64,000 bases of DNA from Mytilus edulis (lineage: Eukaryota): contig NC_092344.1 of NCBI RefSeq assembly GCF_963676685.1, positions 49,352,001 through 49,416,000 on the forward strand, given 5' to 3'. Under the pieces are notes generated by a model. The model did not search any database, was not told where the DNA came from, and worked only from the letters and a program-made list of their open reading frames with translations. A program made the translations under genes and the position numbers. Of the stretch, positions 585 through 60,884 are shown piece after piece (within the stretch, counting starts at the first letter, position 1; every line of letters starts with the position of its first letter).

Positions 585-1960
585 ATGGAGGGAAAGGCTG
601 TTGTGATATTTTTAGGATTTTTTTCATGTGTTTTTGCAGGTATGCATCCCTCTTTGTTTCATATGCAAACTACATTTGATAATTGTGATAATAATTTATT
701 CAAAATAAAGTAATTTAGCAGTTATACTTCTAAAGAAAACAAAACCCAAAACAACACACAAACTGATACGCATTTTTACGTACGAACAAACCCTAGAACA
801 CTATTCCTTCATTAACTTCGAGAGGTTTTCTATTGAACAAATTGCCAAACGCCGTATTCCAACTTCTTACTCTTTGTAAAGTGGTGAAGTCCATCCAAAG
901 ACTTAATTTGCTTTACTTATATGTGTTTTATGAAATATTCCATACGTAGATACAATACTGCTTCACAATAACGCACACAAAGCTACTAGTATACGATTTT
1001 CATGCTCTCTACAATGTTTCTAAACATAATTCGGGTACGCCCCATGATGAAATCACAGTTGGTTCATGAAATTCTTTGTATTTTTGATTAAAAGCGTTAT
1101 AACAACCATGATAATATAAGATATATGAAATTTTATAATTTCAATTACTGTTAATACTGACAGAAGTGTTTAACGATCTTTCGTCGTTTCATCTGTCTTT
1201 TTTTGTTACTTCTCTTATTCTATAAGACGTATCTAAACCTTTAGCAGGCATTTTGAAACCATAATTCACCTGGACTCTATGAAATTAGTATAGCGACAAT
1301 AAAAAACAGCAACATATAATATTAAAATCAAATAATTTCAATTCACATAGAAAAAATAACAGGGATAAAATTATTGAAAAGCAGTCTTATCTCACTTATA
1401 AACGTTATTTCATATTTCATCATTTATAATTTTCAAAATTTATTATTACAGCAAGTTATCCAGTCACGAAAAAATGTGATAATGAATGTTCGAGTCGTTT
1501 AGATTGTGGAAGAGGATACTATTGCCAAACTATAGGATGTAATAGAAGGTGCACATCTCTAAATTTACCAATTGACAATGCTCATATTGACCAAGTAGTC
1601 TCACAAGACACATTCTCATTGAAATGCGAACTAAGATGTAGACAACAAGGAAGGGTAGGTTGTAGACGACTTTGTCAACAAAATGGAGATCAGTTTTTAG
1701 TAGACCAAAGATTCCCTGGTGATTCCTTGGACCATTCCTTTCAAGGGTCCTCAGTAGACCGTACCTTTCCTGGGGCTTCATTAGGCAGTATTCGTTCAGG
1801 CAGTCTTGTTGATCGTATCAGGTCAATCGGTTCAGTTGTTTCAACTCATCATAAAGGGTGCGTAAACATGTGCATTTCTAGGAATCAATGCAACTTCAAC
1901 GAGGATTGTGTCAGCAGAAATGGATGCAATGTATGTGTTCGCGTCAGTTCATATGCGTAG
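585..1960 (+). CDS. Secreted cysteine-rich repeat protein, paralogue 1 (187 aa; join 585..639,1452..1960)
   Basis: Exon 585-639 encodes MEGKAVVIFLGFFSCVFA (signal-peptide-like). It is preceded by a tttttcag acceptor and followed by a gtatgc donor. The phase-1 acceptor ttattacag at 1451 continues in frame (ASYPVTKKCDNECSSRLDC...) into ORF 1619..1960. AATAAA at 2039-2044. The same exon structure recurs in six paralogues. Confidence 0.9.
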
Positions 1961-2873
1961 TGGGACAAATAGACACAGACTACAAAGTGCAATACCATTC
2001 TAAAATACATTAATGTATCTTCTTTTTTATAATTTTATAATAAAAAATTAAAAGATGTAGAGCTTTATTTCATCTTTTTTTCTGTAGAAACCAACGCAAC
2101 TTTAATACATGAAATGATGATTTTTTTTTATGATTTGCTGGAACAAAAAAGAACTTAAATGGACTATGGGAGTTTTTATAGCTGTCACAATAACAAAATG
2201 AGGTATTTTGTCAACTCGAAAACTACACCAACGAGATTATTAGGAAAAACTTAAATTATTTCGTTTCATGTAAATCAAAATCTAAAAAAGGAATATATTT
2301 TATATACTGAATACATTTGAAAAATGGATTTTGAGATAGTTAAACACAAATGTTAAAGCTATTTTATTGACAAGCTTCGAAATGCTATTGTTTTTATTGT
2401 TTTCAGTTGGTAGAAAACACTTGTGATCTTAAATATCCTTATGTCGTTTCAAGTTTTGAGGTTAAATGGTACCAATACATACAACAACTGGACAAATATC
2501 TTGTTAAAAAAAACCCATATAATTTGCACAAAGTAGAAAAGAATATTTAAAGAAATATTTATATTTAAACCATTATAGATTGGACTTTGAGACCATCATT
2601 TAACCTCAGTCATCTATCTTTCGCAATCTTCATACATGTATTGTGAAAAGTAAAATTACAAAAACAACGAATTCCAAAGGAAAAGTCTTTATAAAATATC
2701 AACATTTAAAGCTCAGACACATCTTAAGAATATAAAACAACTGTCATATTCTTTACTTGAAACTGACGTTTTCTTATGTAGCATATGGTGGCTCACACCT
2801 GGTTTTATTGGTGGTTTAATCTTCAACTTATGACGTATGAAAAAAGCATAGAATTCCAATATAATGACATGAT

Positions 2874-3182
2874 AGATATAGGAAGATGTGGTGTGAGTGC
2901 CAATGAGACAACTCTCAATCCAAATATAAAAGTTAACCATTATAGGTCGATGTACGGCCTTCAACACGAAGCCTTAGCTCACACCGAACAACAAGCTATG
3001 AAGGGCCCCAAAATTACTAGTGTAAAATCATTTAAACGGGAAAACTAACGGTCTAATCTATATAAAAAACGAGAAACGAGAAAAACGTACAAATTACATA
3101 AACAAACGACAACTACTGTACATCAGATTCCTGACTTAGGACAGGTGCAAACATTTGCAGCAGGATTAAACGTTTAAATGAA
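2874..3182 (-). mobile_element. Interspersed retroelement 3'-end fragment with truncated twister-like motif
   Basis: Nearly identical to 62711-63025. It ends inside the twister-like motif. Confidence 0.7.
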
Positions 3183-3594
3183 GCTGTTATCAAAACAAAA
3201 AGACATGATAGGCAAACACGTCAAAAATTGGGGTACGTGAAATGCTGATGCTGTTCATTATCAGAGTCGATTAAAATTTTCTTTCAAAAGAACATTCTAC
3301 TATTTTTAGACATTTTTTTTTCATTCATACATTTGTTTATATTCGTCAAAAAAATGATTTAAAATATCCAAAAGAGTTTTAGTTCTCTTTTCATTTCAAT
3401 AAATACAAGTTTAAAAAGGTATAGCATATTCAAATATTAAATTGAGATTTCATAACTCTGCATGCATAATGCAATTCAGCTTGACATCTTCTGATATACT
3501 TATTTTTAACCTTTTTGTCTAGACCAAATCACTACTAGTACTAAACATTAAGATTCAGCACCAATATTTTTTAACATGTAATTCCATTCCCGTA

Positions 3595-4541
3595 CTTGAT
3601 ATTTCATGCTTAATACTAAAATATATGATAAAAGAGATGATTTTTCATTTTCTATAGTTAATTAACTATTTTTAGATGGTGACGTTCCCTTGTCAACATC
3701 TTACGGTGTTTATATATCTCAACTTGTACGATTCGTTTGTGTATGTAACAATGTTTTAGATTTTAAATAGAGAAATTTATGTATAACTGAAAAATAATTA
3801 AACCAGGGTTTTCGATATCACAAACTAGTCAAAACATTTACTAAATTTTATCATCGGTATAACGACATCATTCGTTAATATAGTTCAACATGCAGACTTC
3901 TTATACGTTCAGGTATTTCACATTAACTATTTTATGGAAATATTTTTTATAAAGCACATCAATGCCAGTATTCACCTCAGAAGCTACATTTTTGTAACAA
4001 AACCTTTAGATAGACTTATTAAGAAGGGATATAGTTACGGTACTGTTGTCAGGTCATTAAAGATTGCATATTTTGGCGTAAATATTGATTCACTTTTTAT
4101 CGGAATTAAAGACATTTATCTAAAAACCAGTTGTTGGCATTATACGGTTTATGTTCGTCTCATATATGTTATGATGGTATGATACTAAACCCCTAACGGG
4201 AAGGATTGTGCCTGATATTCATATGATGAAGACATAATCGTTCAAGCAGTTTAACTGAAGTCTGAAGCTGGCATGTCAGTTAACTGCTAGTAGTTTGTTG
4301 TTATTTATGTATTATTGTATTTATATTTTTACATTTAGTTTCCTGTGTACAATTTGGAGTTTAGTATGACGTTTATTATCACTGAACTAGTATACATATT
4401 TTTAGGGGCCAGCTGAAGGACGCCTCCAGGTGCGGGAATTTCTTGCTGCATTGAAGACCTGTTGGTGACCTTCTGCTGTTGTCTGTTCTATGGTCGGGTT
4501 GTGTTCTCTTTGACACATTCCCCATTTCCATTCTCAATTTT
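3595..4541 (+). mobile_element. Penelope-like retroelement family A, 5'-truncated degenerate copy (RT C-terminus plus 3' region)
   Basis: Translates with stops/frameshifts to NTKIYDKRDDFSF..SYGVYISQLVRF..QGFRYHKLVKTFTKFYHRY. Homologous to 28386-29367. Ends in ...ccccatttccattctcaatttt. Confidence 0.75.
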
Positions 4542-4624
4542 AGTATATATAAATATACTAAATAAAGAAATGATTTGGAAAATACCTTGATTATATAAAA
4601 AGTCATGAGAATTCCGAATGCAGT

Positions 4625-4790
4625 TAGATTCTATCCGGGCATTCTGGTTCTAAACCTTGTTTCCATCTGGGTTTTGTGGTTCTGCACCTTGATTCTATCC
4701 GGGTTCGTTGGTTCGAAACCACGGTAACTGGTTCAACATACGGGTTGTTTGGTTATAGCAACCCAATTCTTGGTTCCATCTGGGTTCTAT
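4625..4790. repeat. Degenerate short-period repeat (ggttc/ttctatccggg motifs)
   Basis: Recurrent tggttc, ttctatccggg and ttccatctgggtt words. Confidence 0.4.
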
Positions 4791-9476: not shown

Positions 9477-10685
9477 TTATGTGTAGCTATTAACGCGAAC
9501 ACATTTATTGCATCCATTTCTGTTTTGACAATCCTCATTGATGTTGCATTGATTCCTTGAAAAACAAGTGTCGACACAGCCTTTTGGGAAAATTCGATCA
9601 ACTGAACCACCAGATACAATACGGTCTAATGAACCGCCTTGGATAATACGACGTGCTGAATCTCCTCGAATAACACGGTCTACTGAACCGCCTGGAATAA
9701 GATTATGTACTGAACCGCCTGGAATAATACGATCTAATGAACTGCCTGGAATAATACGATCTAATGAACCTCCCCGAATAATACTATCTCTTTTACCGCC
9801 TAGGGTAATATGATCTACCGAACCGCCTGGAATAATACGATCTAATGAACTTCCTTGAATAAAACTATCTACTTTACGGTCTGTAATAACACGATCTATT
9901 GAACCGCCTGGCAGAATGTGGTCTAATTGGGAATTGTCAACCATTCTTCGGCAAAATCTTCTACAACCTTGTCTTCCTGTCAATCTACAACGTCTTAAGC
10001 ATCCCGATGAGACTGTATTACCAGAATTATATTCTGTAATAAGGACGAAAAAAAATATTAAAATTGTTAAAATGAAGTGAAAAATGTCAAGATTTTGGAA
10101 GAAAGAGGCCTTTGTAGTGTTGATAATACTCTTCATTGATATTATGACTTGAATTTGTCTTAATAGTTGCACAAAAATATGAAAGGATTGTGACACATTA
10201 CTTTTAATAAACTATTACGTTTAATAAAAAACTGAATAATGCAGTTTATTTGAGTCATCTTCTGTTGTCCCTAGGAAATTGCCTCACTGACCTTCTTAGA
10301 GAGAACTACATTTTCAATCTATATTTGCAATCCTTTTGTATTTTTATTTGCTGGCTAACGAAGAAATAGCGTCTTCATTGTTAAGCTTTATCGCGAAAAA
10401 GGTGTGTTTATTAGGTTTTTGCTGTACTTTTGACGACCTTTTTGGATGTTTTTTTTTCACACGTTTCCGTTATTGTATTTTCAGTTTTTTGGCTTCGCCT
10501 CTGATATCATACACATGAAAACACTTTGTCCGCATTAAGTTATAAATGAGATTAGTTTCAGCATTTTGAACTGTGGACTATAAAGCGAATCATCATTACT
10601 ATTATTAATTATTTTATATAAAATACAAACCTGCAAAAACACAGGAAACAAATCCAAGAAAAATTAAAACAGCTTTTCCCTCCAT
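9477..10685 (-). CDS. Secreted cysteine-rich repeat protein, paralogue 2 (203 aa; join complement 10631..10685,9477..10033)
   Basis: Signal exon MEGKAVLIFLGFVSCVFA with a gtttgt donor. The acceptor ttattacag at 10034 is in frame with ORF 9477..10196. It has thirteen 9-aa repeats and a C-terminal 6-Cys domain like gene 1. AATAAA (minus) at 9373-9378. Confidence 0.9.
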
Positions 10686-11176: not shown

Positions 11177-11310
11177 ACTTACTTTATAGTATTAAATACC
11201 TGAGATGCTTAGTTAGCAATGTACTGTCTTTGTAATCTACAACTGCCTTATATATAGTTTACATAAGGAAATGAACGGTTCAATGGATGCGTGACGTCGG
11301 TTTTGTAATA
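11177..11310 (-). promoter_or_regulatory. Putative promoter and non-coding exon 1 of paralogue 2
   Basis: The minus strand reads gacgtcac..tgaaccgttcatttcct..tatatataaggcag, then a GTAAGT donor at 11182-11177. The motif order matches the promoters of genes 3-7. Confidence 0.6.
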
Positions 11311-19755: not shown

Positions 19756-20620
19756 TATTAAAAATATTGAAGTTTTGTGAATATCATTTATGTCTAAGTG
19801 AGCAGAAAGAAAAAAATGAATGAAATATGATATTTGATAGGAAAATTACAATCAAATTTAATATATAGTAACAGCTGTATAACTGATCTTTTAAAATATA
19901 TCATACTAGCCACTTCAAACATCTTTTTATTCAGCTAAAATGCTTGATTGAATTTTAATGTATGGAATTAAATTCATACCTGATTTACCTTTAGAAATTG
20001 GAAACTTTCATATAACATTCATGAAAGTACAAATGTAGCCCTATCTTTTGCACTAATAAAAACATAGGGTCATGCGGCATTTTTGGGCATTCACATGGCC
20101 TTGTTTACAAACAATGTAGATTCGCACTGAATTCCTATACTGACCCCCATTACTTTTCAACCCTGTAGGAAAAAATTTAGTACATTCAGCATTTATTTTT
20201 TTATTTTTTTTCAACTCTAGTTTTGATCCATCTGCCAAAAAATATTTATAACAAACATTATCAACCAATCAGAAGAGCATATGACTTCAGTGTTATCCAG
20301 AAAGCTCTCCCCTAAATGGGCGGTCCCTGATGACGTATATTTATTTACTGAATTTACCCCTTTAAAGTACTAAACATAAAAAAGAACATGTGGTGTGTTT
20401 GCCAATGAGACAACTCTCCACATCAAACCAAATGACGCAGACTTTAACGACTATAGGTCACCGTACGGTCTTCAACAATGAGCAAATCGCATACTACATA
20501 GTCAGTTATAAATCGCCCTGAAATAACAAATTAATGTAAAAAAAAATCAAACGAGCAAACTAACGGCCTAATTTTTTTTTTTAAATCGGAACGAAAAACA
20601 AATATTTAACTCATCAACAA

Positions 20621-22921: not shown

Positions 22922-23079
22922 ATTGCGAAACTTACGTCACACCTGCACTGAACCATTCATTTCCTCTATTACAGTTTATTTCCTCATATGGAGTGTATAT
23001 AAGACAGAAATAAATTTAAAACTTATCAAAACATTTCTGTACACCGTTAAATAACGATACGCATATATTCAAGGTAAGT
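22922..23079 (+). promoter_or_regulatory. Putative promoter and non-coding exon 1 of paralogue 3
   Basis: attgcgaaac (C/EBP-like), ttacgtca (CRE-like), two atttcct (ETS-like), TATATAAG at 22996-23003 and donor AAG|GTAAGT at 23073/23074. Confidence 0.7.
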
Positions 23080-23523: not shown

Positions 23524-25293
23524 ATGGAAGGGAAAGCTGTTATCATTTTCTTTGGCTTTATAGCATGTGCTTTTGCTGGTATGTATTTTATGACGTTATA
23601 TATTTTTATTATTATTCAAATCAGGATTTATACAAAGGAATAAGTCATGAGCAATCATTTTTAAAACTTTACAGACCAAATTTTTGTAAACAAACTATCC
23701 AAAGATTCTTTAAAAAATGATTAAAATACATGAATGTTAAAATTAACATACAAACAATGATACATCGTTTCAACACTTGGCTTATACGTTTACCATTCCT
23801 CATAAGGAAACAATCGCAGAAAACAAGGAAATTTGAAATCATTTAAGGAAAAAAATTGTAAAAGGAAAATCAAAAATGACGGATACATAACATAAGAATA
23901 CCTATCATATTATATTTAAAACGCAAACATGTTTTACGATTGGTGTTAGTAAATTAGAACAGCGGTTTTTGAGTTGGATATTTACTTGGATCTTGATATT
24001 ATTCAAATGAAGATTTATACAAAGGAATAAGTCATGAGCAAACATTATTAAAACATTACAACCCAAATATTTGAAAATGAAACAATCAAAAAATTCTTTA
24101 AAGAAGTTTATTAAATACATGAATGTTAGAATTAACATACAAAAACTGATACATCGTTTCGACACATTTTGAAATCATTTAAGAATAAAAATTGTAGCAG
24201 ACAAAGCGAAAATGACGAATACATAACATGAGAATACCTTATATATTGTATTTAAAGCACAAACATGTTTACAATTAGTGTAAGTAAATTAGAACAGCGG
24301 TTTTTAACTTGGAAATATAGTTAATAGAACATAGAGTAAAAACAAAAACACCTAATGTTTGGTCATTGTTAAGAAAATACAAAAAATACTCACTTCTAAC
24401 GATAAACCGTGAAAGTACTTATACTATATGTAATATTTATATAAGTAATACATTCTTTAAAAAACACTTTGGTTGTAAAACAAATATTGAAACCGAATAA
24501 TACTATAATCTGTTCTACATCACTGTTTAGATTTATGTAGACAAAATGCGCGTCTGTCTTATCAAATTAAAAGCCTGGTACCTTTCTTTTCGAATGAAAA
24601 TTCATATTTCAACATTTCTAATTAATATTTATTATTACAGTATATTCACCCAAAGGCGGGAAAGCTTGTGAAATTGAATGCTCTAGTCATTCAGAATGTC
24701 TAGATGGATACAAATGCCAAACCGAAGGATGTGATCGTATGTGCAGACCTGGAAGAGTAATCTTATCAAATGCAGTTGTCGGATCAGACATTATTACAGC
24801 TGGATGCGTTCAGAGATGTATGGACCGAGGTGGGCTAGGTTGCAGAAGTCTTTGTCAGCGTAGTGGGGATTTATTATCAGGAGGCCAAATCATTCGTAGT
24901 GGTTCCTTAGACAGTAGATTCAATGATGCCTTAGTAGATTCTATTCGGTCAGATAGTCTTGTTAGACATACCTCGTCAGTAGGTGATTCTATTCGATCAG
25001 GTAGTCTTGTTAGACATATCTCGCCAGTAGGTGATTCTATTCGGTCAGATAGTCTTCTTGGACGTATTTCATCAGTAGGTGATTCTATTCGATCAGGTAG
25101 TCTTGTTAGACATATCTCGCCAGTAGGTGATTCTATTCGGTCAGGTAGTCTTCTTGGACGTATCTCGCAAGTTGGTTCAATTTTACATAAAGGCTGTCAA
25201 AATACATGCATTTCACGAGGCTGCAACTTCAACGAGGAATGTGTCACACGAGATGGATGTTCTGTATGTGTTCGTGTCAAGACCTACGCATAA
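23524..25293 (+). CDS. Secreted cysteine-rich repeat protein, paralogue 3 (235 aa; join 23524..23578,24641..25293)
   Basis: Signal exon MEGKAVIIFFGFIACAFA and a GT..AG phase-1 intron. The next exon VYSPKGGKACEIECSSHSECLDGYKCQTEGCDRMC... is in frame with ORF 24739..25293. AATAAA at 25386-25391. Confidence 0.92.
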
Positions 25294-32718: not shown

Positions 32719-34489
32719 ATGGAAGGGAAAGCTGTTATCATTTTCTTTGGCTTTATAGCATGTGCTTTTGCTGGTATGTATTTTATGACGTTATATATTT
32801 TTATTATTATTTAAATGAGAATTTATACAAAGGAATAAGTCATGAGCAAACATTTTTAAAACTTTACAGACCAAATTTTTGAAAACAAACTATCCAAAGA
32901 TTCTTTAGAAAATGATTAAAATACATGAATGTTAAAATTAACATACAAACAATGATACATCGTTTCAACACTTGGCTTATACGTTTACCATTCCTCATAA
33001 GGAAACAAATCGCAGAAAACAAGGAAATTGAAATCATTTAAGGAAAAAAATTGTAAAAGGAAAATCAAAAATGACGGATACATAACATAAGAATACTTTC
33101 ATATTACATTTAAAACGCAAACATGTTTTACGATTGGTATAAGTAAATTAGAACAGCGGTTTTTGACTTGGATATTGACTTGGATCTTGATATTATTCAA
33201 ATGAAGATTTATACAAAGGAATAAGTCATGAGCAAACATTATTAAAACATTACAACCCAAATATTTGAAAATGAAACAATCAAAAGATTCTTTAAAGAAG
33301 TTTATTAAATACATGAATGTTAGAATTAACATACAAAAACTGATACATCGTTTCGACACTTTTTGAAATCATTTAAGAATAAAAATTGTAGCAGGCAAAG
33401 CGAAAATGACGAATACATAACATGAGAATACCTTATATATTGTATTTAAAGCACAAACATGTTTACAATTGGTGTAAGTAAATTAGAACAGCGGTTTTTG
33501 ACTTGGAATTTTGTTAATAGAACATAGAGTAAAAACAAAAACACCTAATGTTTGGTCATTGTTAAGAAAATACAAAAAATACTCACTTCTAACGATAAAA
33601 CCGTGAAAGTACTTATACTATATGTAATATTTATATAAGTTATACATTCTTTAAAAAACACTTTGGTTGTAAAACAAATATTGAAACCGAATAATACTAT
33701 AATCTGTTCTACATCACTGTTTAGATTTATGTAGACAAAATGCGCGTCTGTCTCATCAAATTAAAAGTCTGGTACCTTTCATTTTTTGAATGAAAATTCA
33801 TATTTCAACATTTCTAATTAATATTTATTATTACAGTATATTCACCCAAAGGCGGGAAAGCTTGTGAAATTGAATGCTCTAGTCATTCAGAATGTCTAGA
33901 TGGATACAAATGCCAAACCGAAGGATGTGATCGTATGTGCAGACCTGGAAGAGTAATCTTATCAAATGCAGTTGTCGGATCAGACATTATTTCAGCTGGA
34001 TGCGTTCAGAGATGTATGGATCGAGGTGGGCTAGGTTGCAGAAGTCTTTGTCAGCGTAGTGGAGATTTATCATCAGGAGGCCAAATCATTCGTAGGGGTT
34101 CCTTAGACAGTAGATTCAATGATGCCTTAGTAGATTCTATTCGGTCAGATAGTCTTGTTAGACATACCTCGTCAGTAGGTGATTCTATTCGATCAGGTAG
34201 TCTTGTTAGACATATCTCGCCAGTAGGTGATTCTATTCGCTCAGATAGTCTTCTTGGACGTATCTCATCAGTAGGTGATTCTATTCGATCAGGTAGTCTT
34301 GTTAGACATATCTCGCCAGTAGGTGATTCTATTCGGTCAGGTAGTCTTCTTGGACGTATCTCGCAAGTTGGTTCAATTTTACATAAAGGCTGTCAAAATA
34401 CATGCATTTCACGAGGCTGCAACTTCAACGAGGAATGTGTCACACGAGATGGATGTTCTGTATGTGTTCGTGCCAAGACCTACGCATAA
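32719..34489 (+). CDS. Secreted cysteine-rich repeat protein, paralogue 4 (235 aa; join 32719..32773,33837..34489)
   Basis: Same exon structure and intact frame as paralogue 3. AATAAA at 34582-34587. Confidence 0.92.
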
Positions 34490-41557: not shown

Positions 41558-43293
41558 ATGGAAGGGAAAGCTGTTATCATTTTCTTTGGCTTTATAGCAT
41601 GTGCTTTTGCTGGTATGTATTTTATGACGTTATATATTTTTATTATTATTTAAATGAGAATTTAGACAAAGGAATAAGTCATGAGCAAACATTTTTAAAA
41701 CTTTACAGACCAAATTTTTGAAAACAAACTATCCAAAGATTCTTTAAAAAATGATTAAAATACATGAATGTTTCAACACTTGGCTTATACGTTTACCATT
41801 CCTCATAAGGAAACAAATCGCAGAAAACAAGGAAATTTGAAATCATTTAAGGATAAAAATTGTAAAAGGAAAATCAAAAATGACGGATACATACCATAAG
41901 AATACCTATCATATTATATTTAAAACGCAAACATGTTTTACGATTGGTGTAAGTAAATTAGAACAGCGGTTTTTGACTTAGATATTGACTTGATATTATT
42001 CAAATTAAAATTTATACAAAGGAATAAGTCATGAGCAAACATTATTAAAACATTACAACCCAAATATTTGAAAATGAAACAATCAAAAGATTCTTTAAAG
42101 AAGTTTATTAAATACATGAATGTTAGAATTAACATACAAAAACTGATACATCGTTTCGACACTTTTTGAAATCATTTAAGAATAAAAATTGTAGCAGGCA
42201 AAGCGAAAATGACGAATACATAACATGAGAATACCTTATATATTGTATTTAAAGCACAAACATGTTTACAATTGGTGTAAGTAAATTAGAACAGCGGTTT
42301 TTGACTTGGAAATATAGTTAATAGAACATAGAGTAAAAACAAAAACACCTAATGTTTGTCATTGTTAAGAAAATACAAAAAATACTCACTTCTAACGATA
42401 AAACCGTGAAAGTATTTATACTATATGTAATATTTATATAAGTAATACATTCTTTAAAAAACACTTTGGTTGTAAAACAAATATTGAAACCGAATAATAC
42501 TATAATCTGTTCTACATCACTGTTTAGATTCATGTAGACAAAATGCGCGTCTGTCTTATCAAATTAAAAGCCTGGTACCTTTCATTTTTTCGAATGAAAA
42601 TTCATATTTCAACATTTCTAATCAATATTTATTATTACAGTATATTCACCCAAAGGCGGGAAAGCTTGTGAAATTGAATGCTCTAGTCATTCAGAATGTC
42701 TAGATGGATACAAATGCCAAACCGAAGGATGTGATCGTATGTGCAGACCTGGAAGAGTAATCTTATCAAATGCAGTTGTCGGATCAGACATTATTTCAGC
42801 TGGATGCGTTCAGAGATGTATGGACCGAGGTGGGCTAGGTTGCAGAAGTCTTTGTCAGCGTAGTGGAAATTTATTATCAGGAGGCCAAATTATTCGTAGT
42901 GGTTCCTTAGACAGTAGATTCAATGATGCCTTAGTAGATTCTATTCGGTCAGATAGTCTTGTTAGACATACCTCGTCAGTAGGTGATTCTATTCGATCAG
43001 GTAGTCTTGTTAGACATATCTCGCCAGTAGGTGATTCTATTCGCTCAGATAGTCTTCTTGGACGTATCTCATCAGTAGGTGATTCTATTCGATCAGGTGG
43101 TCTTGTTAGACATATCTCGCCAGTAGGTGATTCTAATCGGTCAGGTAGTCTTCTTGGACGTATCTCGCAAGTTGGTTCAATTTTAAATAAAGGCTGTCAA
43201 AATACATGCATTTCACGAGGCTGCAACTTCAACGAGGAATGTGTCACACGAGATGGATGTTCTGTATGTGTTCGTGCCAAGACCTACGCATAA
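41558..43293 (+). CDS. Secreted cysteine-rich repeat protein, paralogue 5 (235 aa; join 41558..41612,42641..43293)
   Basis: Same exon structure, intact frame. AATAAA at 43386-43391. Confidence 0.92.
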
Positions 43294-44855: not shown

Positions 44856-47420
44856 TCAATCAGTTTCTCTTCCACAGTCCGTTGGGCAGTTGCGTAATGC
44901 TGTGCATTTTAATGCTGCTTTCAAGCATTTACATGCTCCTCGACATCCTTTCTCAGGGGATGAGATCTTGGCATGACATTGAAGCGTCAGCAAGCACAGA
45001 CAAGAATGGCACCCAAGTACCATCAAGTTTTTGCCAACCAAATAAATCTGGTGGTGGCATACTTGGATTTGCACCTAAACAATTGCCCAAATAACACTAC
45101 CTTGGTAAGCTGTACGTTTCGTATGTTGAAGAAGTTCATCACGTGTTGGAGGGAAATTGTCGATTGTTCTTGTCTTCTGTGTGAATAACTATTTGCTTAA
45201 CTCACTCATCGTATAATTTGTACTAGACCGATCATACAAAAGCACAACATACCGTTCTATTACTTTTAACACTTTTAAAATTTGCACTTCATTTAGATTC
45301 TCAATAACCTGCAGAAATGCTTCTGAAAACTCCTCATATACGGACCATGTGTCCCAATCTGATTTCTTACCTTTCCCAGAAAAAGCTGAGACTGCGTCAC
45401 AACCGGTAAAGGCATGGCACAGTGGAAAGACTTTCGATTCAATGGTCCTAGGGCAAGGAACAATCCATGAACTGATATATCGGAAGTTCTTCCTAGTGCC
45501 AAAACCTATCTATAGCTATTCAATCTGCAGTCCGTTTGGAATGAGTCTTGGAAGGATAATATTTGTTCATGATGAGGTTTATTAGATTCGTTAGTGTATA
45601 CAAAGCATTCAGTGACATTTTCAAATTCATTTACCAAACTAGCCATTTCAGGCCCAGCACCCATCCATCTATGAAGCGCTCCTGGATTTTCCGTCAATCT
45701 AACAGCACCACCATCTGCTTTAACATGCGCATTATTTTGTTCGTCGGCTTGATTAAAAGCCATACAGGAAAATTTCTTCTCGGTCTTGGTGGCAAAGAGG
45801 GTTGCCGCTGAGGATTGCTCTGTGGGTTTCTGAATTCTTTTTTGGCAACTGAAGCATATCACGCAGACGAATTGGCAGCCATCGTGAATAGTTAGTGTGA
45901 TCCAAGGCAAAGAACCAAGGAATGATCTTTGAGAGAGCTTCGATATATAATAAAAAGTTAGTCTCACGTATAGACCTTATAAATATTAATAATGTCAATT
46001 CCAAACACCACTCTTCAAATTCTAAGATAACCTCATCATACCTCAAAACATCTTTGTACTGGCAGTACGCGTTTGACAATAGACGGTAAAGTGTGCATGC
46101 TGTAACTTGGTGTGTTCTACGTGTTGTTGTAACAGAAGAAGCCTCTAGGAATGAATCAGCAGTACCTGGTGATGTAACCTGTGCATTTACTAAAACACTT
46201 GTCCATTCACTATCTTCAAGTCAACTACCAAATGCTTTGAACGCAGCAATTTCTATGTGTAGGCCGCCGAACATCATTACAAAGTGATCCTCGCCATACA
46301 TTTGAGGCCAGTTCCATTATATTTGTTTTGCTATTGTGAAAAGGGGTTGGTCAAAAGCAACAACGGAAGTTTGGCCAGGATTTCGCTTTCTTACAGCGTT
46401 ACGAATAATGTTCAATGAGTGCCGTATCAAAGCAACAGATTTTGCTTGCTCATGAAACAGAGGTAGAAAGGAAGACACTGCTGGTAATTTATTCGCATCT
46501 GGCAGTACTACAGCATGATTGGCGGACCATGAAATATATTTACCCACTTTAGCCATAACACTTGAATTTTCTGCAACATGTTTCAGCCATTTGAGTTTCC
46601 CTTTTAATGCAGCTTGGAATGAGGGCATATCAATTGAAAGTTCTCCTTTAACTAATGGGATATCTGGTTCGTTGAATCTTAGTACAGCTGGTGGAAGATT
46701 TGAATGACTCTCTGGTAATGGTAAAAGAGAAACTCTCTTTGACTGGCATTTCAACATAGGTTCAGATAGGAGAAATGGTTGAACAACGCCTTGAACATCT
46801 TCTGAAATATGTTGAAATAAAGATATACATGTACCATCGAATGAATCTTATGACGATATACTGCTTGGATTGTGATCAATGTTGTCTACAGCAGATGAAG
46901 TAAATACATTTTGTAGTAGATTGGTAGGGCAAACTATACCGTCTTTTACATAACGATCATGAGACATGGAAGTAGAAATTTCTAACTCTCGGTGATAGGA
47001 GACAAATAGTCCAAGTTTGAAGAAAGTATCTACTACATGTAGATCACGTTTCTAGTTTTACAGAGGATCATGATTCCCAAATAAGCACAAACTGTAGGTT
47101 CATGATCTTTTATGTGACGGTTTGATAGTTTCTTTGTACATCTATACATCAGAAGCGCTGTGCTATCGTTAATGTCGACTGAGAATATAACCGATCACTG
47201 AATGTTGGGTCCAAACTTAATCATACTGACAAAAGAAAGCAATGACTGGGATACAGAATTTTCCTGACATCACTTTGGGAAGGTTCCTTTAAATTCCTAA
47301 TTTGATGCGAACATATCTGTACGAAACAAACGTAGCTGCTTTTGATATGTTGAAAAATTGATTATCAAAGTCTTCTAAGCAGACTCTCGTCAATGCAGGA
47401 CCAGTGTCATATTTGAAAGC
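44856..47420 (-). pseudogene. Academ-type transposase pseudogene (frameshifts and stops)
   Basis: Fragments VVAFDQPLFTIAKQI, FGGLHIEIA, IPWFFALDHTNYSRWL, FNQADEQNNAHVK.DGGA, HAFTGCDAVSAF.GKGK (XPG-like) and a C-terminal Cys cluster. These resemble Academ transposases as I recall them. Confidence 0.75.
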
Positions 47421-47454
47421 AAGAATGTTTATTGTTTCTGATAATAAGACTTTT

Positions 47455-48360
47455 GACGGCCATTTTGAATTTGTCAGCCATTATGGAATTATTTTTTATT
47501 GTTCCATATTCATAAAATATTAATTAGCATCATAACAAGCAATCTGCAAAGTGTTGTGCTTTTATTTTCAAATGATCAATTATATCATTTTTTTGGACTC
47601 TGCATCATGACTGTTGGCGGCCATTTTGAATTTGTCGGCCATTATGGAATTATTTTTGATTGTTCCATATCCATAAAAGATTAATAAGCAATATAACTAG
47701 CATAGCAACATGCAAAGTGTTGTGCTTTTATTTTCAAATGATAAATTAAGCCATATTTTTGGACTCTGCCTCATGACTGTTGGCCACCATTTTGAAACTG
47801 GCGGCCATTATGGAATTATTTTTGATTGTTCCATATTCAGAAAAGATTAATTATCATCATAACTAGCAATATGCAAATGTTTGTGTCTTTATTTTCAAAT
47901 GATAAATTATACTATATTTTTAGACTCTGCTTCATGACTGCTGGCGGCCATTTTGAAATTGGCGGCCATTGTGGAATTTTTTTTTTGATGGCTCCATAAC
48001 CAAAAATATTTATAAGCAATATAACTAGCATAGCAACATGCAAAGTGTTGTGCTTTTATTTTCAAATGATAAATTAAGCCATATTTTTGGACTCTGCCTC
48101 ATGACTGTTGGCCACCATTTTGAAACTGGCGGCCATTATGGAATTATTTTTGATTGTTCCATATTCAGAAAAGATTAATTATCATCATAACTAGCAATAT
48201 GCAAATGTTTGTGTCTTTATTTTCAAATGATAAATTATACTATATTTTTAGACTCTGCTTCATGACTGCTGGCGGCCATTTTGAAATTGGCGGCCATTGT
48301 GGAATTTTTTTTTTTAAGGCTCCATAACCAAAAATATTTATAAGCATCATAACTAACACT
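47455..48360. repeat. Subterminal ~120-bp repeats with a ~358-bp higher-order duplication
   Basis: Repeated ggcggccattttgaa..ggccattatggaattatttttgattgttccatat. About 47686-48010 is duplicated at about 48014-48340. Confidence 0.85.
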
Positions 48361-51300
48361 GTGCAAAGTTTCATGCTTTTACCACAAAGTGATCAATTGT
48401 CCCAAAATATTGGACTTAGCTGCTGGACTAGGCAAAAATTGAAAGATAGAAAAAATGACTATAGCACAATATCACAGTGTGCCGAGCCAAAAAGATATAA
48501 ACGACAATTGACTAAACAGTCAAGGTACATGTCTTAGAAAGATAAATAAACGAACACTATAAAACGTTGTTAAAAGTGAGACAAAAAATATTAAATGAAC
48601 ATTCAAACTAAAAATCGAAATGAATCTGAAAAAGACATTTATAAAATACAAAAAGGACAAACAGACAAACACAATAGAAAACCAAAGACTGTGCAGCACG
48701 AGCGTTACCAACAGTTGGGTAATCTCAGGTGCTCCGGAAAGGTAAGCAGATCTTGCTCCACATGTGACACTTGTAAAGTTTCGCATGTTACTAGAAACCC
48801 GGTGATTTGGCTAGCTCGATAAATCACATACCGAAAATAGTATCAGCAAAACGGCTACTATATTTTGTACATGGAATAAATGCAAAGTTTACATTTTGGA
48901 GTTAAGTGTGACGTCTATTTCACTGAACAAGATCACAATTTTATTCAGAGGCCATATGAGCACCACTTCACTGTCGTCGCCTCAATACCATGGTTAATAA
49001 GGACATTGCTAAAATTAAAAAAAAGTATATATATATTTATTCGTTATTCAGATTGAGGCAATTTCTTTTTAAAAAACCACTTATTAGTTGTTTACCATAT
49101 CAATGTATTATAATCACTACGCTGAGCTCTGTAGCATTTAAGGGTAGTCGATTACTTTAGTGTATTTATTATTATACAATGAGTTTATGATAGAACGTTA
49201 ACACTATATTTTTCTCAAAATATCATTTATTGAAGAAAGGTTGTCTTCGTCCATCTTAGATTTTAAAATACCAGAAAACAATCGATCTCGATCTTTAAGT
49301 GAATAAGGTAATTTATATGTAGGAATTTTCTTTGAAATAAAGAAAATGACACATTTTATCATTTTAATAATTGTATTTTACAAAAAAAAACTTTTGTTCA
49401 ATTATTTTTTTCCAACTTTGCCACATAAGGAAGGCAACTCAAATGTAAGGGCTGATAATTCAGACAAAGTTACTTCTACAATAGAATGTGTTAGGAATTT
49501 ACCTATTTCATTATGTAGCAAGAAAACGAGTTCTGTGACCTATTTTTTCTTTTTTTTTACCTGAAAGCATAATGTTAGAGATATCTTCTCATATTCTATT
49601 CAAAAATTGTATGGTGTAGTTTTCGTTTTATGGCAGAAAATTTGGTTTTCCATGCATGATCTATTCAAAATTTGTGAAATTTGCACAACCTGTAGCACGA
49701 AAACAAGCCACGTGACCCATTCTTTTTATTTATGTTTTTAAAAAAGCATGATATAAACTACATTTTGGCAAAGTATTAAAACATTTTATGGATTATAATT
49801 TAGACACCCCCCATCTACCTTAAACTAGAAACCGTAATTAAAATGTAACGTTTAAACTTAACATGATTTAACACTTAACCTTAATAATAGTGGAAATTAT
49901 GCGATAAACCTCTTAAAAATACCAACACTGAAAGACCGAAAATGAGGATAAAAAATATTATAAAGAAAGATGATGTTTGTTAACAAACATTATCTGTAAT
50001 CCATTTCTTGCTGTATTTGGTAAAATGTATAGAAATTGTTCGTTCTCAATGCTCGTAAGCTTTGTACTCTAAAAAAAATTATTCGAACGTCACTGATGAG
50101 TCTTTTGTAGACGAAATGCGCATTGGGCGGAAATACAAAATTTCTATCCTGGTATCTATGATGAGATAGTTTGCATTAATCTCGTATTGTTTTTGATGTG
50201 TTTTGCCATTGACTTTTGCCATGTTTAGGGACTTTCCGAATAGATCTTCCTCTGAGATCAGTATTTTTGTGATTTTACTTTTTTGTATAACAGTGTAAGA
50301 AAGTATGAATTAATTTGATTTGCTTATCCAACCTCATAAGACGATATTACGGCATTTTCATTTGCTTTTCGTTAGGTCCAAGATACATTTTAAAATGTTA
50401 AGAAGATGTAGTTTTGTTAATGGCAACTGCATGAACAGGTATATGTGATTTTCTCAAAAATATACAAAACACTCACACTTTTTACCTGACAATCTTCTTT
50501 CTATCAATGTTTGTTACATTCTGAAGCGTACAAAAAGCCTTTAAATGTCTGATGTTAAAGTTTTACACAGGAAAAGGACATATTATGTCATACTAGAATC
50601 TGCAAATAAATAGATCAACAATTCGCGAAATTTTAAATTTAATCAAATGATAGTGTTGACCATTGAGAAATAGGTTAAACAACTTGAAATAAATGGATAT
50701 CGCTTTGTCTCACTCTCATCAAGTATTTTAATGGTAATAATAAACTCGCCGAAGGCTTGTTAATTGTCCTTTTGAAATTCGATAAATAACTCAAATTGAC
50801 GCCAAGCGATTATCCATTCTCACTGGTTATGAAAGCTATAATTACAGCATTCTTTAAATAACAGCTATGGTTTTGATTTTAAAGATGCTCTTATTTCCCT
50901 CTCAAAATTTGTATCTATTCCTTTAAAGTACTTAACATAAAAAAGAACATGTGGTGTGTTTGCCAATTGAGACAACTCTCCACAAGAAACCAAATGACGC
51001 AGACTTTAACGACTATAGGTCACCGTACGGTCTTCAACAATGAGCAAAGCGCTTACTACATAGTCAGTTATAAATCGCCCTGAAATGACAAATTAATGTA
51101 AAACAATTCAAACGAGGAAACTTACGGCCTAATGTTTGTAAAAGATAGGAATGAAAAACAAATATTTAACTCATCAACAACTGACAATCACTGAATTGAA
51201 TTACAAGCTCATGATTTGGGACAGGCATATACATACAGATGTGACGGGGTTACACATGTTAGCGGGACCCAAACCCTCCCCAAACCTGGAACAGTCCCTC

Positions 51301-52057: not shown

Positions 52058-52215
52058 ATTGCGAAACTTACGTCACACCTGCACTGAACCATTCATTTCC
52101 TCTATTACAGTTTATTTCCTCATATGGAGTGTATATAAGACAGAAATAAATTGAAAACTTATCACAACATTTCTGTACACCGTTAAATAACGATACGCAT
52201 ATATTCAAGGTAAGT
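52058..52215 (+). promoter_or_regulatory. Putative promoter and non-coding exon 1 of paralogue 6
   Basis: ttacgtca at 52068-52075, TATATAAG at 52132-52139 and donor at 52209/52210. Confidence 0.7.
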
Positions 52216-52660
52216 TATATGTCTATAATGAATTTATTTTTCAAAATATAATAGATTATATTTTAATGTATGCAATTAATGTTTAATTTAAAGAACAACA
52301 ACGTCTATCTTGTTAAAACAATAGATTCGCAGTATAAGATATATGAATAATGATGATGATTATGATTTGAGCATGAAATATTTCTAGCAACGTCAAATCA
52401 TCTAAAATCACGGATTCAAAAGATATAAGAATAGTCCTAATCAGTTAAAAACAATTCGAGGATTAACAGATAAATGTCTTTTTCTTCATACTATAATGTG
52501 TGGCAATAATACATTTTCCATGGTGAATCCTGCAGATAAGTGTTGAAGTCCTCATTTAAAGCATCAGATATATTGGTTTCAATTATTTTTTTCATTTTTA
52601 GTAATATTTTCAAACCAATCAATTTTAGTTGCATTTGTTTTAATATTCATTTTAGGTATA

Positions 52661-54434
52661 ATGGAAGGGAAAGCTGTTATCATTTTCTTTGGCTTTATAG
52701 CATGTGCTTTTGCTGGTATGTATTTTATGACGTTATATATTTTCATTATTATTTAAATGAGAATTTATACAAAGGAATAAGTCATGAGCAAACATTTTTA
52801 AAACTTTACAGACCAAATTTTTGAAAACAAACTATCCAAAGATTCTTTAAAAAATGATTAAAATACATGAATGTTCAAATTAACATACAAACAATGATAC
52901 ATCGTTTCAACACTTGGCTTATACGTTTACCATTCCTCATAAGGAAACAAATCGCAGAAAACAAGGAAATTTGAAATCATTTAAGGAAAAAAATTGTAAA
53001 AGGAAAATCAAAAATGACGGATACATAACATAAGAATACCTATCATATTATATTTAAAACGCAAACATGTTTTACAATTGGTATAAGTAAATTAGAACAG
53101 CGGTTTTTGACTTGGATATTGACTTGGATCTTGATATTATTCAAATGAAGATTTATACAAAGGAATAAGTCATGAGCAAACATTATTAAAACATTACAAC
53201 CCAAATATGTGAAAATGAAACAATCAAAAGATTCTTTAAAGAAGTTTATTAATACATGAATGTTAGAATTAACATACAAAAACTGATACATCGTTTCGAC
53301 ACTTTTTGAAATCATTTAAGAATAAAAATTGTAGCAGGCAAAGCAAAAATGACGAATACATAACATGAGAATACCTTATATATTGTATTTAAAGCACAAA
53401 CATGTTTACAAATGGTGTAAGTAAATTAGAACAGCGGTTTTTGACTTGGAAATATAGTTAATAGAACATAGAGTAAAAACAAAAACACCTAATGTTTGGT
53501 CATTGTTAAGAAAATACAAAAAATACTCACTTCTAACGATAAAACCGTGAAAGTACTTATACTATATGTAATATTTATATAAGTAATACATTCTTTGAAA
53601 AACACTTTTGTTGTAAAACAAATATTGAAACCGAATAATACTATAATCTGTTCTTCATCACTGTTTAGATTTATGTAGACAAAATGCGCGTCTGTCTTAT
53701 CAAATAAAAAGCCTGGTACCTTTCATTTTTTCGAATGAAAATTCATATTTCAACATTTCTAATCAATATTTATTATTACAGTATATTCACCCAAAGGCGG
53801 GAAAGCTTGTGAAATTGAATGCTCTAGTCATTCAGAATGTCTAGATGGATACAAATGCCAAACCGAAGGATGTGATCGTATGTGCAGACCTGGAAGAGTA
53901 ATCTTATCAAATGCAGTTGTCGGATCAGACATTATTTCAGCTGGATGCGTTCAGAGATGTATAAACCGAGGTGGGCTAGGTTGCAGAAGTCTTTGTCAGC
54001 GTAGTGGAGATTTATTATCAGGAGGCCAAATCATTCGTAGTGGTTCCTTAGACAGTAGATTCAATGATGCCTTAGTAGATTCTATTCGGTCAGATAGTCT
54101 TGTTAGACATACCTCGTCAGTAGGTGATTCTGTTCGATCAGGTAGTCTTGTTAGACATATCTCGCCAGTAGGTGATTCTATTCGCTCAGATAGTCTCTTT
54201 GGACGTATCTCACCATTAGGTGATTCTATTCGGTCAGGTAGTCTTGTTAGACATATCTCGCCAGTAGGTGATTCTATTCGGTCAGGTAGTCTTCTTGGAC
54301 GTATCTCGCAAGTTGGTTCAATTTTACATAAAGGCTGTCAAAATACATGCATTGCACGAGGCTGCAACTTCAACGAGGAATGTGTCACACGAGATGGATG
54401 TTCTGTATGTGTTCGTGCCAAGACCTACGCATAA
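52661..54434 (+). CDS. Secreted cysteine-rich repeat protein, paralogue 6 (235 aa; join 52661..52715,53782..54434)
   Basis: Same exon structure, intact frame. AATAAA at 54527-54532. Confidence 0.92.
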
Positions 54435-57842: not shown

Positions 57843-58000
57843 ATTGCGAAACTTACGTCACGCCTGCACTGAACGATTTATTTCCTCTAGTACAGTATAT
57901 TTCCTCATATAGAGTGTATATAAGACAGGAATAAATTGAAGACTTATCAAAACATTTCTGTACACCGTTAAATAGAAATACACATACATTCAAGGTAAGT
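57843..58000 (+). promoter_or_regulatory. Putative promoter and non-coding exon 1 of paralogue 7
   Basis: ttacgtca at 57853-57860, TATATAAG at 57917-57924 and donor at 57994/57995. Confidence 0.7.
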
Positions 58001-58241
58001 TATATGTTCATAATGAATTCATTTTTCAAAGTATTATAGAAAATGTTTAAATGTATGCAATTACTGTTGTAGTATGAAAAACAACAACTTCTATCTCGTT
58101 AAGAAATAAGTTCTTACGATTAGAGGATGGTTAGGAATGTAATTTTGATTTCATTTTTACCTTTTTTCTGTGAACGTCAAATCATCTGAAGTCACGATAA
58201 AGAAAACGATTCGGTAGATACAAAAGATGTAATAATTGTCA

Positions 58242-58988
58242 TTATCATATACTTAGACTAAATAATATATTATTTTCAATGTATGATAAAAAGATTAAAT
58301 TAACGTAAACTCAATATGTTTCGAATTTGTGCCTAGCGTGCTATTATGAAAAGTTTATCCAATGCTTCCATAGTTATCACATGCCTTTCCGTAAAGTGAT
58401 CGCATGGCATTTAGGTGATACTCGGCAAATTCCGGAAAATACAATTCAATACTACGCTTTCAGTGAAAAACATTACAAAGTATTGTACAAAACAATTATT
58501 TGAATACTGAAAAGTATATTGTGTAAAATAATAAAAAGCAGAAAACAAACAAAAAAATAAATAAATGCATTTTTAAATGTATAAAAAGTTTCAAACATAA
58601 TTTAGAAAGTTACTTTAAAAAAGTTGACTTTTCCAAACATTAGGTATATTGTTGAATTATTGTTTTTGTCGATTCGTTCATAATTTTTTTCTTCTCTGTT
58701 GAGGCATATGATGAGAAAAATTTCATATCGAATGTACTAAATCTGGAGTCCGACGTCCGTGTACATTTCAATCTTTGAACTTCTATTTTGGAACCACGTA
58801 AAAGGATCAATATATGAATCTGTTATTTTTCTCCATTGTTTAAGCATATGATAAAAAGATCATAACATGTCTTTTTTCATATCTCATGTATTATCAGACC
58901 TCGGTCAATATCAGACCTCGAGCAATGCGGCTCTTGGGCTCGTATTGAACCTAGGGCTGATAATACATGCAATATGAAAAATGCCATG
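58242..58988. mobile_element. Unclassified insertion in intron 1 of paralogue 7 (IR-bounded segment plus long hairpin)
   Basis: IR ttatcatatactta (58242) / taagcatatgataa (58854), followed by an imperfect hairpin at 58866-58988. Absent from intron 1 of genes 3-6. Confidence 0.55.
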
Positions 58989-59222
58989 AAATAATCTTAA
59001 ATTATCAGCTGTTAAAAACACGCGGATGATCAGAAAAGTGTTTTTTTCTTAATAATAAGATGTATGGCAATCATACATTTTTCATGGCTATTCCTGCTGA
59101 TAAGTATTGCAACCCTAGTTTAAGGCATCAGATATATTGGAAGAATAAATTTTTCAATTTTAGTGACATTTGCAAACCAATCAATTTTAGTTGCATTTGT
59201 TTTAATATTCATTCTAGGTATA

Positions 59223-60884
59223 ATGTTAGGGAAAGCTGTTATCATTTTCTTTGGATTTATAGCATGTGCTTTTGCTGGTATGTATCTTATGACGTTATAT
59301 ATTTTTTATTGTTCAAATGAGGATTTATACAAATGAATTAGTCATGAGAAAACATTATTAAAACAATACAGACTAAATATTTGAAAACAAACAATACAAA
59401 GATTCTTTAAACAAATGATTAAATACATGAATGCTAGAATTAACATACAAACAATGATACATCGTTTCAACATTTGGCTTGTACATTTACTATTCCGAAT
59501 AAGGAAACAGATCGCGGAAACAACGATATTTGAAATTCATTTAAGAATAAAAATTGTTTCTTGTACCAGATGCGCATTTCGACAATACATGTTTCTTCAG
59601 TGAGGCTCGTGGCCAAAATATTTGAAATCCAAAGCTTATATAAAGATGAAGAGCTATAATCCAAAAGGTCCAAAAAGTATAGCCAAATCCGTCAAAGGAA
59701 TCAGAGCTTTACATGAGGGAGATACATTCCTTAATTTATAATAATTTCTATCATTTTGTAACAGCACATTTTTATAACACAAAAAAAATCCGTATTTTCA
59801 TGCCAGTACCGAAGTACTCAAACCTGGTCTTTCTATTGGTGTTAGTAAATTAGAACAGCGGTTTTTGATTTAGAAAAATAAGTAATAGAACAAAGAGTTC
59901 CAAAAAATATCATTTTTTTTTATTGTTTGAGAAAATGAAAAAAAAAATTATTTTACCTTTTTCTACGAGTAAAAAGCATATTTTACTCTCACCATTAACG
60001 ACGAAACTACGAAAGCACTTATATATTTTATATCAATAATGCAATGTATAATACACACTTTGTTTGTAAAAAATATCGAAACCGAATAATATTTAAAATC
60101 TAAGATACTTCACTGAAGAGTCTTATGTTGACGAAACGCGCGACTGGCTTATCAAATAATAGGCCTGGTACCTTTTATGTTTTACGAATGATAATTCATA
60201 TTTCAACATTTCTAATTAAAATTTATTATTACAGTATATTCACCCAAAGGCGGGAAAGCTTGTGAAATTGAATGCTCCAGTCATTCAGAATGTCTAGATG
60301 GATACAAATGCCAAACCGAAGGATGTGATCGTATGTGCAGACCTGGAAGAGTAATTTTATCTAATGCAGTTGCCGGATCAGACATTATTTCAGCTGGATG
60401 CGTTCAGAGATGTATGGACCGAGGTGGGCTAGGTTGCAGAAGGGTTTGTCAGCATAGTGCAGATTTATTATCAGGAGGCCAAATCATTCGTAGTGGTTCC
60501 TTAGACAGTAGATTCAATGATGCCTTAGTAGATTCTATTCGGTCAGATAGTCTTGTTAGACATACCTCTTCAGTAGATGATTCTATTCGGTCAGGTAGTC
60601 TTGTTAGACATATCTTGCCAGTAGGTGATTCTATTCGGTCAGATAGTCTTCTAGGACGTATCTCACCAGTAGGTGATTCTATTCGATCAGGTAATCTTGT
60701 TAGACATATCTCGCCAGGAGGTGCACTACGGTCAGGTAGTCTTCTTGGACGTATCTCGCAAGTTGATGCAATTTCACACAAAGGCTGTCAAAATACATGC
60801 ATTTCACGAGGCTGCAACTTCAACGAGGAATGTGTCACCAGAGATGGATGTTCTGTATGTGTTCGTGCCAAGACCTACGCATAA
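59223..60884 (+). CDS. Secreted cysteine-rich repeat protein, paralogue 7 (234 aa; join 59223..59277,60235..60884)
   Basis: Signal exon MLGKAVIIFFGFIACAFA, intact frame and a one-codon deletion in the repeat tract. AATAAA at 60977-60982. Confidence 0.92.
59563..59818 (-). mobile_element. Partial 350-bp-family retrozyme, antisense in intron 2 of paralogue 7
   Basis: The reverse complement matches the 350-bp unit. Hammerhead gcctca-CTGAAGA-aacatgtattgtc-GAAA-tgcgcatc-tggtac at 59563-59607. Confidence 0.8.
60111..60147 (+). ncRNA. Intronic hammerhead relic (more decayed copies at 24521-24556, about 33715, 42518 and 53658)
   Basis: ca-CTGAAGA-gtc-ttatgtt-gac-GAAA-cgcgcg-AC-tgg. The cleavage triplet is GAC instead of GUC. 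Confidence 0.65.

Follow-up and report, generated by a model that had tools for sequence, protein, structure and literature searches.

A cluster of cysteine-rich Mytilus genes whose terminal modules derive from the WAP domain

What kind of protein is encoded by seven neighbouring cysteine-rich genes of the mussel Mytilus edulis, and from what are its modules derived? The genes lie in the 64,000-nucleotide stretch of NC_092344.1 analysed here (49,352,001-49,416,000; the window, in which all cluster coordinates below are positions). A sequence-only reading of this DNA had described seven intact copies that share a signal exon, a phase-1 intron, a CX3C-X7-CX3C motif, a repeat tract and a terminal six-cysteine domain ending in [ST]Y[AT], with 16 cysteines in the mature protein (10 in gene 2), and had called the family unrecognised. 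The description was confirmed by translation: genes 1-7 encode 187, 203, 235, 235, 235, 235 and 234 residues with no internal stop, 16 cysteines follow residue 18 in six of them and 10 in gene 2, and the C-terminal ends read SYA, SYT or TYA. The label was not upheld, as the terminal modules of the seven genes derive from the WAP domain (the C-terminal module being the more divergent copy) and four orthologues carry the UniRef name ‘WAP domain-containing protein’.

Each gene consists of a 55-nucleotide signal exon (18 codons plus one nucleotide), a phase-1 intron of 597-1066 nucleotides (GT..TTACAG) and a single last exon that holds the entire mature protein; the 18-residue hydrophobic leader makes secretion of the seven products likely. 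Two six-cysteine modules, spaced C-X3-C-X5-C-X5-C-X4-C-X3-C (3-5-5-4-3) at the N-terminus and 3-4/5-5-5-2 at the C-terminus, flank the CX3C-X7-CX3C (four-cysteine) motif and the repeat tract, and gene 2 is without the N-terminal module. These patterns stand far above chance, because the window holds 13 six-cysteine and seven four-cysteine matches, against no six-cysteine match in any of 30 Markov-resampled windows and one four-cysteine match in a single one of them (1/30).

Origin of the six-cysteine modules

On sequence comparison, the N-terminal module is a WAP domain without cysteines 1 and 6. Its six cysteines correspond to WAP C2, C3, C4, C5, C7 and C8 and align gap-free to omwaprin (PDB profile search, residues 12-45, E 0.0028); WAP C1 and C6 are disulfide partners, and therefore exactly one disulfide would have been lost from the six-cysteine module. 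A 662-residue open reading frame situated 42 kb beyond the window (L027:2101-4086) carries one canonical eight-cysteine WAP domain followed by 11 modules spaced 3-5-5-4-3, identically to the N-terminal module of the family, and matches Pfam WAP with 94.7 bits over 12 stretches; two more genes of this WAP-then-six-cysteine kind are found at 49.479 and 49.860 Mb (G000:C1; L039:3136-4344 and L058). A profile built from 44 modules outside the family recovers the N-terminal modules at 25.6-30.4 bits in all six family proteins that have one, and scores the C-terminal modules at 2.7-8.2 bits. Among the aligned module rows, 17 of 20 match Pfam WAP at E<=1, more than match any other family.

Structural modelling points the same way, and the N-terminal module is predicted to adopt the WAP fold. 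Its model (predicted local distance difference test, pLDDT, 80.5) retrieves omwaprin first in Foldseek (probability 0.99, template-modelling score 0.66, E 0.15), while in VIA-align SLPI (Z 4.0, root-mean-square deviation 2.6, 35 aligned residues) and omwaprin (Z 4.0, deviation 1.8, 33 aligned) head the top four of 10 rows, followed by 6atu, which we take to be elafin, and nawaprin. The full-length AlphaFold model (pLDDT 46) is too poor to use, and with it Foldseek again placed omwaprin first, with no match at E<=0.001. Top matches in the ESM Atlas were WAP clusters with scores <0.8, which we treat as a lead only, and nothing usable was returned once WAP clusters were excluded.

Several observations weigh against this ancestry. 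No family member passes the Pfam WAP cut-off (PF00095, gathering score 20.8 bits): isolated N-terminal modules score 18.3 and 14.5 bits and full-length members have no WAP match in Pfam, the cut-off being passed by neighbouring genes and one four-module relative (94.7, 21.7 and 27.5 bits). Whole-exon Pfam and PDB sequence searches gave nothing significant, and the silence of Pfam accounts for the label ‘unrecognised’. The Dumpy DPY module is also matched by 7 of the 20 module rows, and in the PDB profile search two P-conotoxins (22.3 and 21.8 bits) come slightly above omwaprin (20.8 bits). No structural match reaches E<=0.001 and Z is only 4, a low value to be expected because the module has about 40 residues. 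Taken alone, the sequence link of the C-terminal module to WAP is weak. The central WAP motif CxxDxxC (PMC5012510) is absent, its Asp position being occupied by Arg in gene 1 and by His in genes 3-7, and each module has six cysteines where the WAP/WFDC definition has eight conserved ones in four disulfides (PMC11408880).

How do these proteins compare with WAP proteins already described? With the waprins (omwaprin 3NGG, nawaprin 1UDK) they share secretion, the predicted fold of the N-terminal module and the C2-X3-C3-X5-C4-X5-C5 and C7-X3-C8 spacing; unlike the waprins, they lack the first cysteine and the second of the CC pair, and their modules are joined to a four-cysteine motif and a repeat tract. 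The SLPI-like WAP proteins of Trichuris and Trichinella are likewise an expanded secreted family with exactly six cysteines (PMC5012510), and the nematode and mussel modules likely arose independently because the lineages differ. Perlwapin, which inhibits crystal growth, and the Mytilus perlwapin-like protein P86855 are WAP proteins that molluscs secrete into the shell matrix (PMC5854119, PMC8382897); each contains three four-disulfide WAP domains without a repeat tract, unlike the two six-cysteine modules and four-cysteine motif seen here, and no perlwapin occurs among the homologue matches of the family. Trappin-2/elafin also combines a WAP domain with a repeat tract and is anchored to the extracellular matrix (PMC11408880), whereas the mussel genes have neither the GQDPVK-type transglutaminase repeats nor the inhibitory loop. 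Type II crustins are small secreted proteins in which a signal peptide, repeat tract, four-cysteine region and WAP domain come together, but they are crustacean, and show a 12-cysteine signature with a full eight-cysteine WAP domain and a Gly-rich tract placed first (PMC9680087), whereas the mussel proteins have 16 or 10 cysteines in a different order and a central tract. Lustrin A is another molluscan secreted WAP protein of the shell matrix, in which cysteine modules alternate with low-complexity linkers. The Tyr-rich repeats of Dopa-type mussel foot proteins are absent (Tyr makes up 0% of the tract). By descent and predicted fold, the family is a WAP derivative; it belongs neither to the perlwapins, crustins and trappins nor to the Dopa-type foot proteins.

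No full-length match to a characterised family was found in our searches, in line with the sequence-only reading. Specifically, no Pfam or database match was named defensin, mytilin, myticin or CRP-I (their cysteine arrays were not compared individually), and no homologue match bore the name of the byssal cuticle proteins mfp-16 to mfp-19 (PMC7018715), which were compared by name only.

Related genes occur in the surroundings. Database models of the 662-residue frame go under the names ‘keratin-associated protein 10-4-like’ or ‘prion-like domain-bearing protein 25’. The genes at 49.479 and 49.860 Mb (open reading frames of 403 and 490 residues) have a leading eight-cysteine WAP domain and Ser-rich or Gly/Ser-rich linkers. 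A 927-residue frame at 49.433 Mb (L024:7166-9946) encodes, between long linkers, a six-cysteine module and three CI[DN]NC-type six-cysteine modules spaced 3-5-4/5-3-3, and has no Pfam match. At least 79 WAP matches above the Pfam cut-off occur in the whole genome, clustered on several contigs.

Gene structures, transcripts and turnover of the cluster

Gene 1 (plus strand) has its signal-peptide exon at 585..639 and its last coding exon at 1452..1960, with the first cysteine of the WAP-derived module at 1475, the four-cysteine motif at 1625, a 61-residue tract and the C-terminal six-cysteine module at 1859. Gene 2 lies on the minus strand; its last coding exon (9477..10033) comprises an Arg-rich four-cysteine motif, a 124-residue tract of 9-residue repeats and the C-terminal six-cysteine module, its signal-peptide exon spans 10631..10685, and a TATA-like box with a probable exon of the 5' untranslated region (UTR) and its donor is suggested at 11200..11256. 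The remaining genes are on the plus strand. Gene 3 has a TATA-like box and 5'UTR exon at 22996..23073, the coding part of the signal-peptide exon at 23524..23578 and the last coding exon at 24641..25293, which contains the six-cysteine module (24667), the four-cysteine motif (24805), a 113-residue tract with 48-nucleotide repeats (24937-25176) and the C-terminal module (25195). Genes 4, 5 and 6 have signal-peptide exons at 32719..32773, 41558..41612 and 52661..52715, preceded by homologues of the 5'UTR exon within 32147-32287, 40984-41124 and 52086-52226, and last coding exons with 16 cysteines at 33837..34489, 42641..43293 and 53782..54434. Gene 7 has homologues of the promoter and 5'UTR exon at 57871..58007 (90% to gene 3), followed by the signal-peptide exon (59223..59277) and the last coding exon with 16 cysteines (60235..60884).

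The spliced transcripts that the sequence-only reading called for were found for the gene 3 type, which the read-based junction check covers. The intron 23579-24640 is skipped at GT..AG in contigs of all three probable RNA runs (three studies; no run is recorded as RNA) and retained in the single DNA-like run (skipping 0/1). One of the RNA-type contigs also skips an additional 5'UTR intron (23074-23518), which is absent from the earlier list. Because genes 3-6 are about 98% identical, the spliced contigs are not assignable to one copy among them; four runs of the same study that lack the stretch do not amount to tissue restriction, and contig depth cannot rank expression. For gene 1, the database model P0002 has an identical exon join. 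The last exon of gene 3 contains a second in-frame TTACAG acceptor at 24800, which genes 4-7 lack; its use would drop the N-terminal module, and no reads support it.

A TATA-like box stands upstream of the 5'UTR exon in genes 3-6, with a homologous box in gene 7. Such promoters would suit any narrowly expressed secretory gene, including one for a gamete, egg-coat or larval protein, or for a signalling or carrier protein, unrelated to the adult shell or byssus. We hold this to be unlikely, even if many WAP proteins have unrelated functions (PMC9680087): none of the observations speaks directly for it, and recognition proteins of gametes usually evolve fast, unlike these genes.

The family extends beyond the window by two copies. 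The first lies about 56 kb upstream (L017:4064-4570) and is intact and gene 1-like, with 94% protein identity, and the second, about 4 kb beyond the window end (L023, ~3380-4740), is frameshifted in the repeat tract, lacks one cysteine of the N-terminal module and may be a pseudogene or an assembly error. The upstream copy sits in an 8.6-kb segment that shares 99% identity with the DNA preceding gene 1, and its last exon differs from that of gene 1 in 24 of 507 bases (14 synonymous, 10 non-synonymous); judged by these patterns it is a mosaic produced by recombination or conversion. A run of 100 N separates gene 1 from this copy, and an uncollapsed haplotype may be the alternative.

Within the window, genes 3-6 share 97.6-98.9% coding-sequence identity (the gene 3 values being computed on its shorter form). 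We ruled out an assembly artefact for genes 3-7, since there are five copies in duplication units 90-97% alike with different insertions, and tandem copies also occur in other Mytilus assemblies. The intergenic DNA contains tandem arrays at 26656-28385 (350 bp, 4.9 copies, 96%) and 47448-48381 (161 bp, 5.7 copies), as well as decayed transposon-like coding fragments at 20609-21303, 28180-28746, 38409-39103 and 45509-46847, which look reverse-transcriptase-like from their translations and have no Pfam match of note.

The expectation of a lineage-specific, amplified family was borne out by tandem copies and by named homologues that come from Mytilus only (M. edulis, galloprovincialis, trossulus, coruscus and californianus, frequently in series of adjacent accessions; the count excludes records that may be models of this genome itself). 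When 1.84 billion representatives were searched with a profile, there were 11 matches at E<=0.001, the named ones being Mytilus except for one repeat-only match. In a quick tree of 32 rows (without the repeat-only match P0019, the chimeric model P0021 and P0003 with its divergent C-terminus) three subfamilies are resolved, namely the gene 1 type, the gene 2 type and the genes 3-7 type; genes 3-7 form one young clade with M. galloprovincialis and M. edulis records (Shimodaira-Hasegawa-like approximate likelihood ratio test 96), and the M. trossulus members form separate pairs. By these comparisons the cluster is genus-wide and under birth-and-death turnover. A literature search by accession stems, family motifs and keywords, outside which subscription journals fell, found no description of the family: short family motifs matched only an unrelated plant paper, and none of the accession stems occurs in the supplements of PMC10639161.

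The four-cysteine motif and the repeat tract

Where does the CX3C-X7-CX3C motif, which is present in all seven genes, come from? Four metagenome proteins (P0016, P0047, P0051 and P0020) have four complete six-cysteine modules; as in the family, a Tyr follows the acceptor, and the C-terminal module is similar. They are probably genes of the host mussel, and it is possible that they preserve the ancestral layout. A MAFFT alignment sets the four-cysteine motif, with a gap of nine residues, against module 2 of these relatives; the repeat tract is aligned at the position of module 3. In a position-score test, selected after the likeness had been noticed, the motif resembles both ends of the 44-module profile with p<0.02 under both nulls in three of six sequences, the other three having p 0.03-0.13. 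The full-length model places helices at 52-64 and 70-75 over the motif (pLDDT ~50) and leaves the tract disordered.

On these grounds we put forward, as a doubtful but conceivable origin, that the motif arose in Mytilus by a nine-residue deletion within a six-cysteine WAP module, which would have taken away two cysteines belonging to separate disulfides; the four left over would then re-pair, and a beta-hairpin WAP fold would become a helical hairpin. Were this true, the locus, with eight-, six- and four-cysteine forms within 200 kb, would let the loss of disulfides be followed stage by stage up to a change of fold, and genes 1 and 2, with their Arg-rich hairpins, could offer a new antimicrobial scaffold. 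Plant alpha-hairpinins also fold a CX3C-Xn-CX3C pattern as helix-loop-helix, with 1-4 and 2-3 disulfides, and two helices are predicted over the mussel motif; this resemblance is likely convergent, because the motif aligns to the WAP-derived module of the relatives.

Modules have been lost one at a time: gene 2 lacks the N-terminal module and has the four-cysteine motif, and its sister P0014 (VDI19957.1) has the N-terminal module and has lost the motif. Such single losses, and the presence of three compact modules with linkers between them, would be compatible with a polyprotein processed into three separate cysteine-rich peptides, as the sequence-only reading had entertained. We regard this as very improbable, since the dibasic sites that lie outside the modules show no conservation (no KR or RR in genes 1, 3, 5, 6 and 7; 0-4 among orthologues). 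Furthermore, the tract is unlike a disposable spacer, its mean identity being 0.69 against 0.67 for the N-terminal module. Across the family it varies in length from 61 to 159 residues at fixed cysteine spacing.

Selection, charge and the role of the proteins

The ratio of non-synonymous to synonymous substitution rates (dN/dS) is 0.37-0.44 between subfamilies, deeper ratios being rough on account of the repeat alignments, and is ~0.4 also between genes 3-6 and gene 7. The N-terminal module is unchanged among genes 3-7, and the compared family copies show no sign of positive selection or hypervariability. Together, fixed cysteine spacing, a variable tract, a dN/dS of ~0.4 and an invariant N-terminal module fit a dosage-amplified, non-inhibitory protein better than an arms-race peptide.

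This bears on the possibility that the proteins are surface antimicrobials of the waprin or crustin kind, whose WAP-like and Arg-rich four-cysteine modules would act on microbes of the mucus or extrapallial fluid by binding or damaging them. Mussel antimicrobial families are usually hypervariable or under positive selection, neither of which is seen here. Charge speaks on both sides: the mature proteins are cationic (net +5 to +10) and the four-cysteine motif reaches +8 in gene 2 and +5 in gene 1, but in the most amplified subtype (genes 3-7) the motif carries only +3 and the N-terminal module is acidic (net -2). Omwaprin, the closest solved structure, is antibacterial (PMC11408880), and the crustin-like union of repeat tract, four-cysteine region and WAP domain (PMC9680087) would also accord with such a function; the 12-cysteine signature and the Gly-rich tract of crustins are nevertheless missing (Gly 12-16% of the tract). 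On balance we consider an antimicrobial role rather unlikely, though it deserves to be kept in view.

Could the proteins instead be serine-protease inhibitors that shield the byssus or shell matrix from proteolysis? That is how mussel WAP genes are usually interpreted (PMC5854119, PMC5549309, PMC7971044); certain single-WAP crustins do block proteases (PMC9680087), and SLPI is among the best structural matches. Antiprotease WFDC domains, however, require 6 and 8 residues between cysteines 1, 2 and 3 (PMC11408880). In the N-terminal module the Cys1-Cys2 segment is lost with Cys 1 itself and the next gap (Cys2-Cys3) is 3 in place of 8, so that canonical protease inhibition is unlikely; moreover, the copies show no variable reactive-site position. 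An inhibitory role thus appears quite improbable.

Of the roles that the sequence-only reading had proposed, protease inhibitor and polyprotein are disfavoured by the missing antiprotease spacing and the unconserved dibasic sites, and the matrix protein is the one we favour. By analogy with other WAP proteins of molluscs, and tentatively, we reason that the family may act in a secreted matrix, be it of mantle edge, shell or foot secretion, as a non-inhibitory binding or spacing part. The net acidic charge of the N-terminal module in genes 3-7, and the 14 synonymous against 10 non-synonymous changes that separate gene 1 from its upstream copy, are in keeping with such a role. The proteins would be exported by the 18-residue signal peptide, and each six-cysteine module would be closed by three intramolecular disulfides (WAP C2-C7, C3-C5 and C4-C8, a connectivity taken from elafin, with the C1-C6 pair gone). 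The two compact end modules, joined by a flexible Ser/Gly/Arg/Asp linker, would then bridge or space matrix partners, and tandem copies would boost output in one secretory tissue. Foot and mantle rim of the mussel Mytilisepta show an enrichment of WAP domains (PMC5549309), in Perna viridis they are amplified and foot-expressed (PMC7971044), and calcite-bearing bivalve shells contain them (PMC5854119, PMC8382897).

There are also points that count against a matrix role, beyond its dependence on analogy. The mussel papers just mentioned treat other WAP proteins, mostly read as protease inhibitors (PMC5854119, PMC5549309, PMC7971044), and short family motifs are absent from the supplements of two shell-proteome papers (PMC5854119, PMC4517812), which may not list sequences. 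The cationic character of the mature proteins does not favour this role. Judging from composition, known cross-linking chemistry is not visible in the tract, which has no Tyr in any of the seven genes, and the seven proteins have few Gln (3-7) or Lys (3-4) outside the modules. Lastly, among genes 3-6 there are 7 synonymous and 15 non-synonymous changes, and neutrality is not rejected (p 0.46).

Mussels have expanded WAP genes, many of them active in foot and mantle, that are assumed to be protease inhibitors. This locus reveals a large class of WAP-derived modules minus one disulfide and minus the inhibitory spacing, which fall below the Pfam threshold and are consequently missed or misnamed (‘uncharacterized’, ‘keratin-associated’, ‘prion-like’). 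Its proteins can be put to the test as candidate non-inhibitory matrix proteins, and in a small space it illustrates the shedding of cysteine pairs by disulfide-rich domains.

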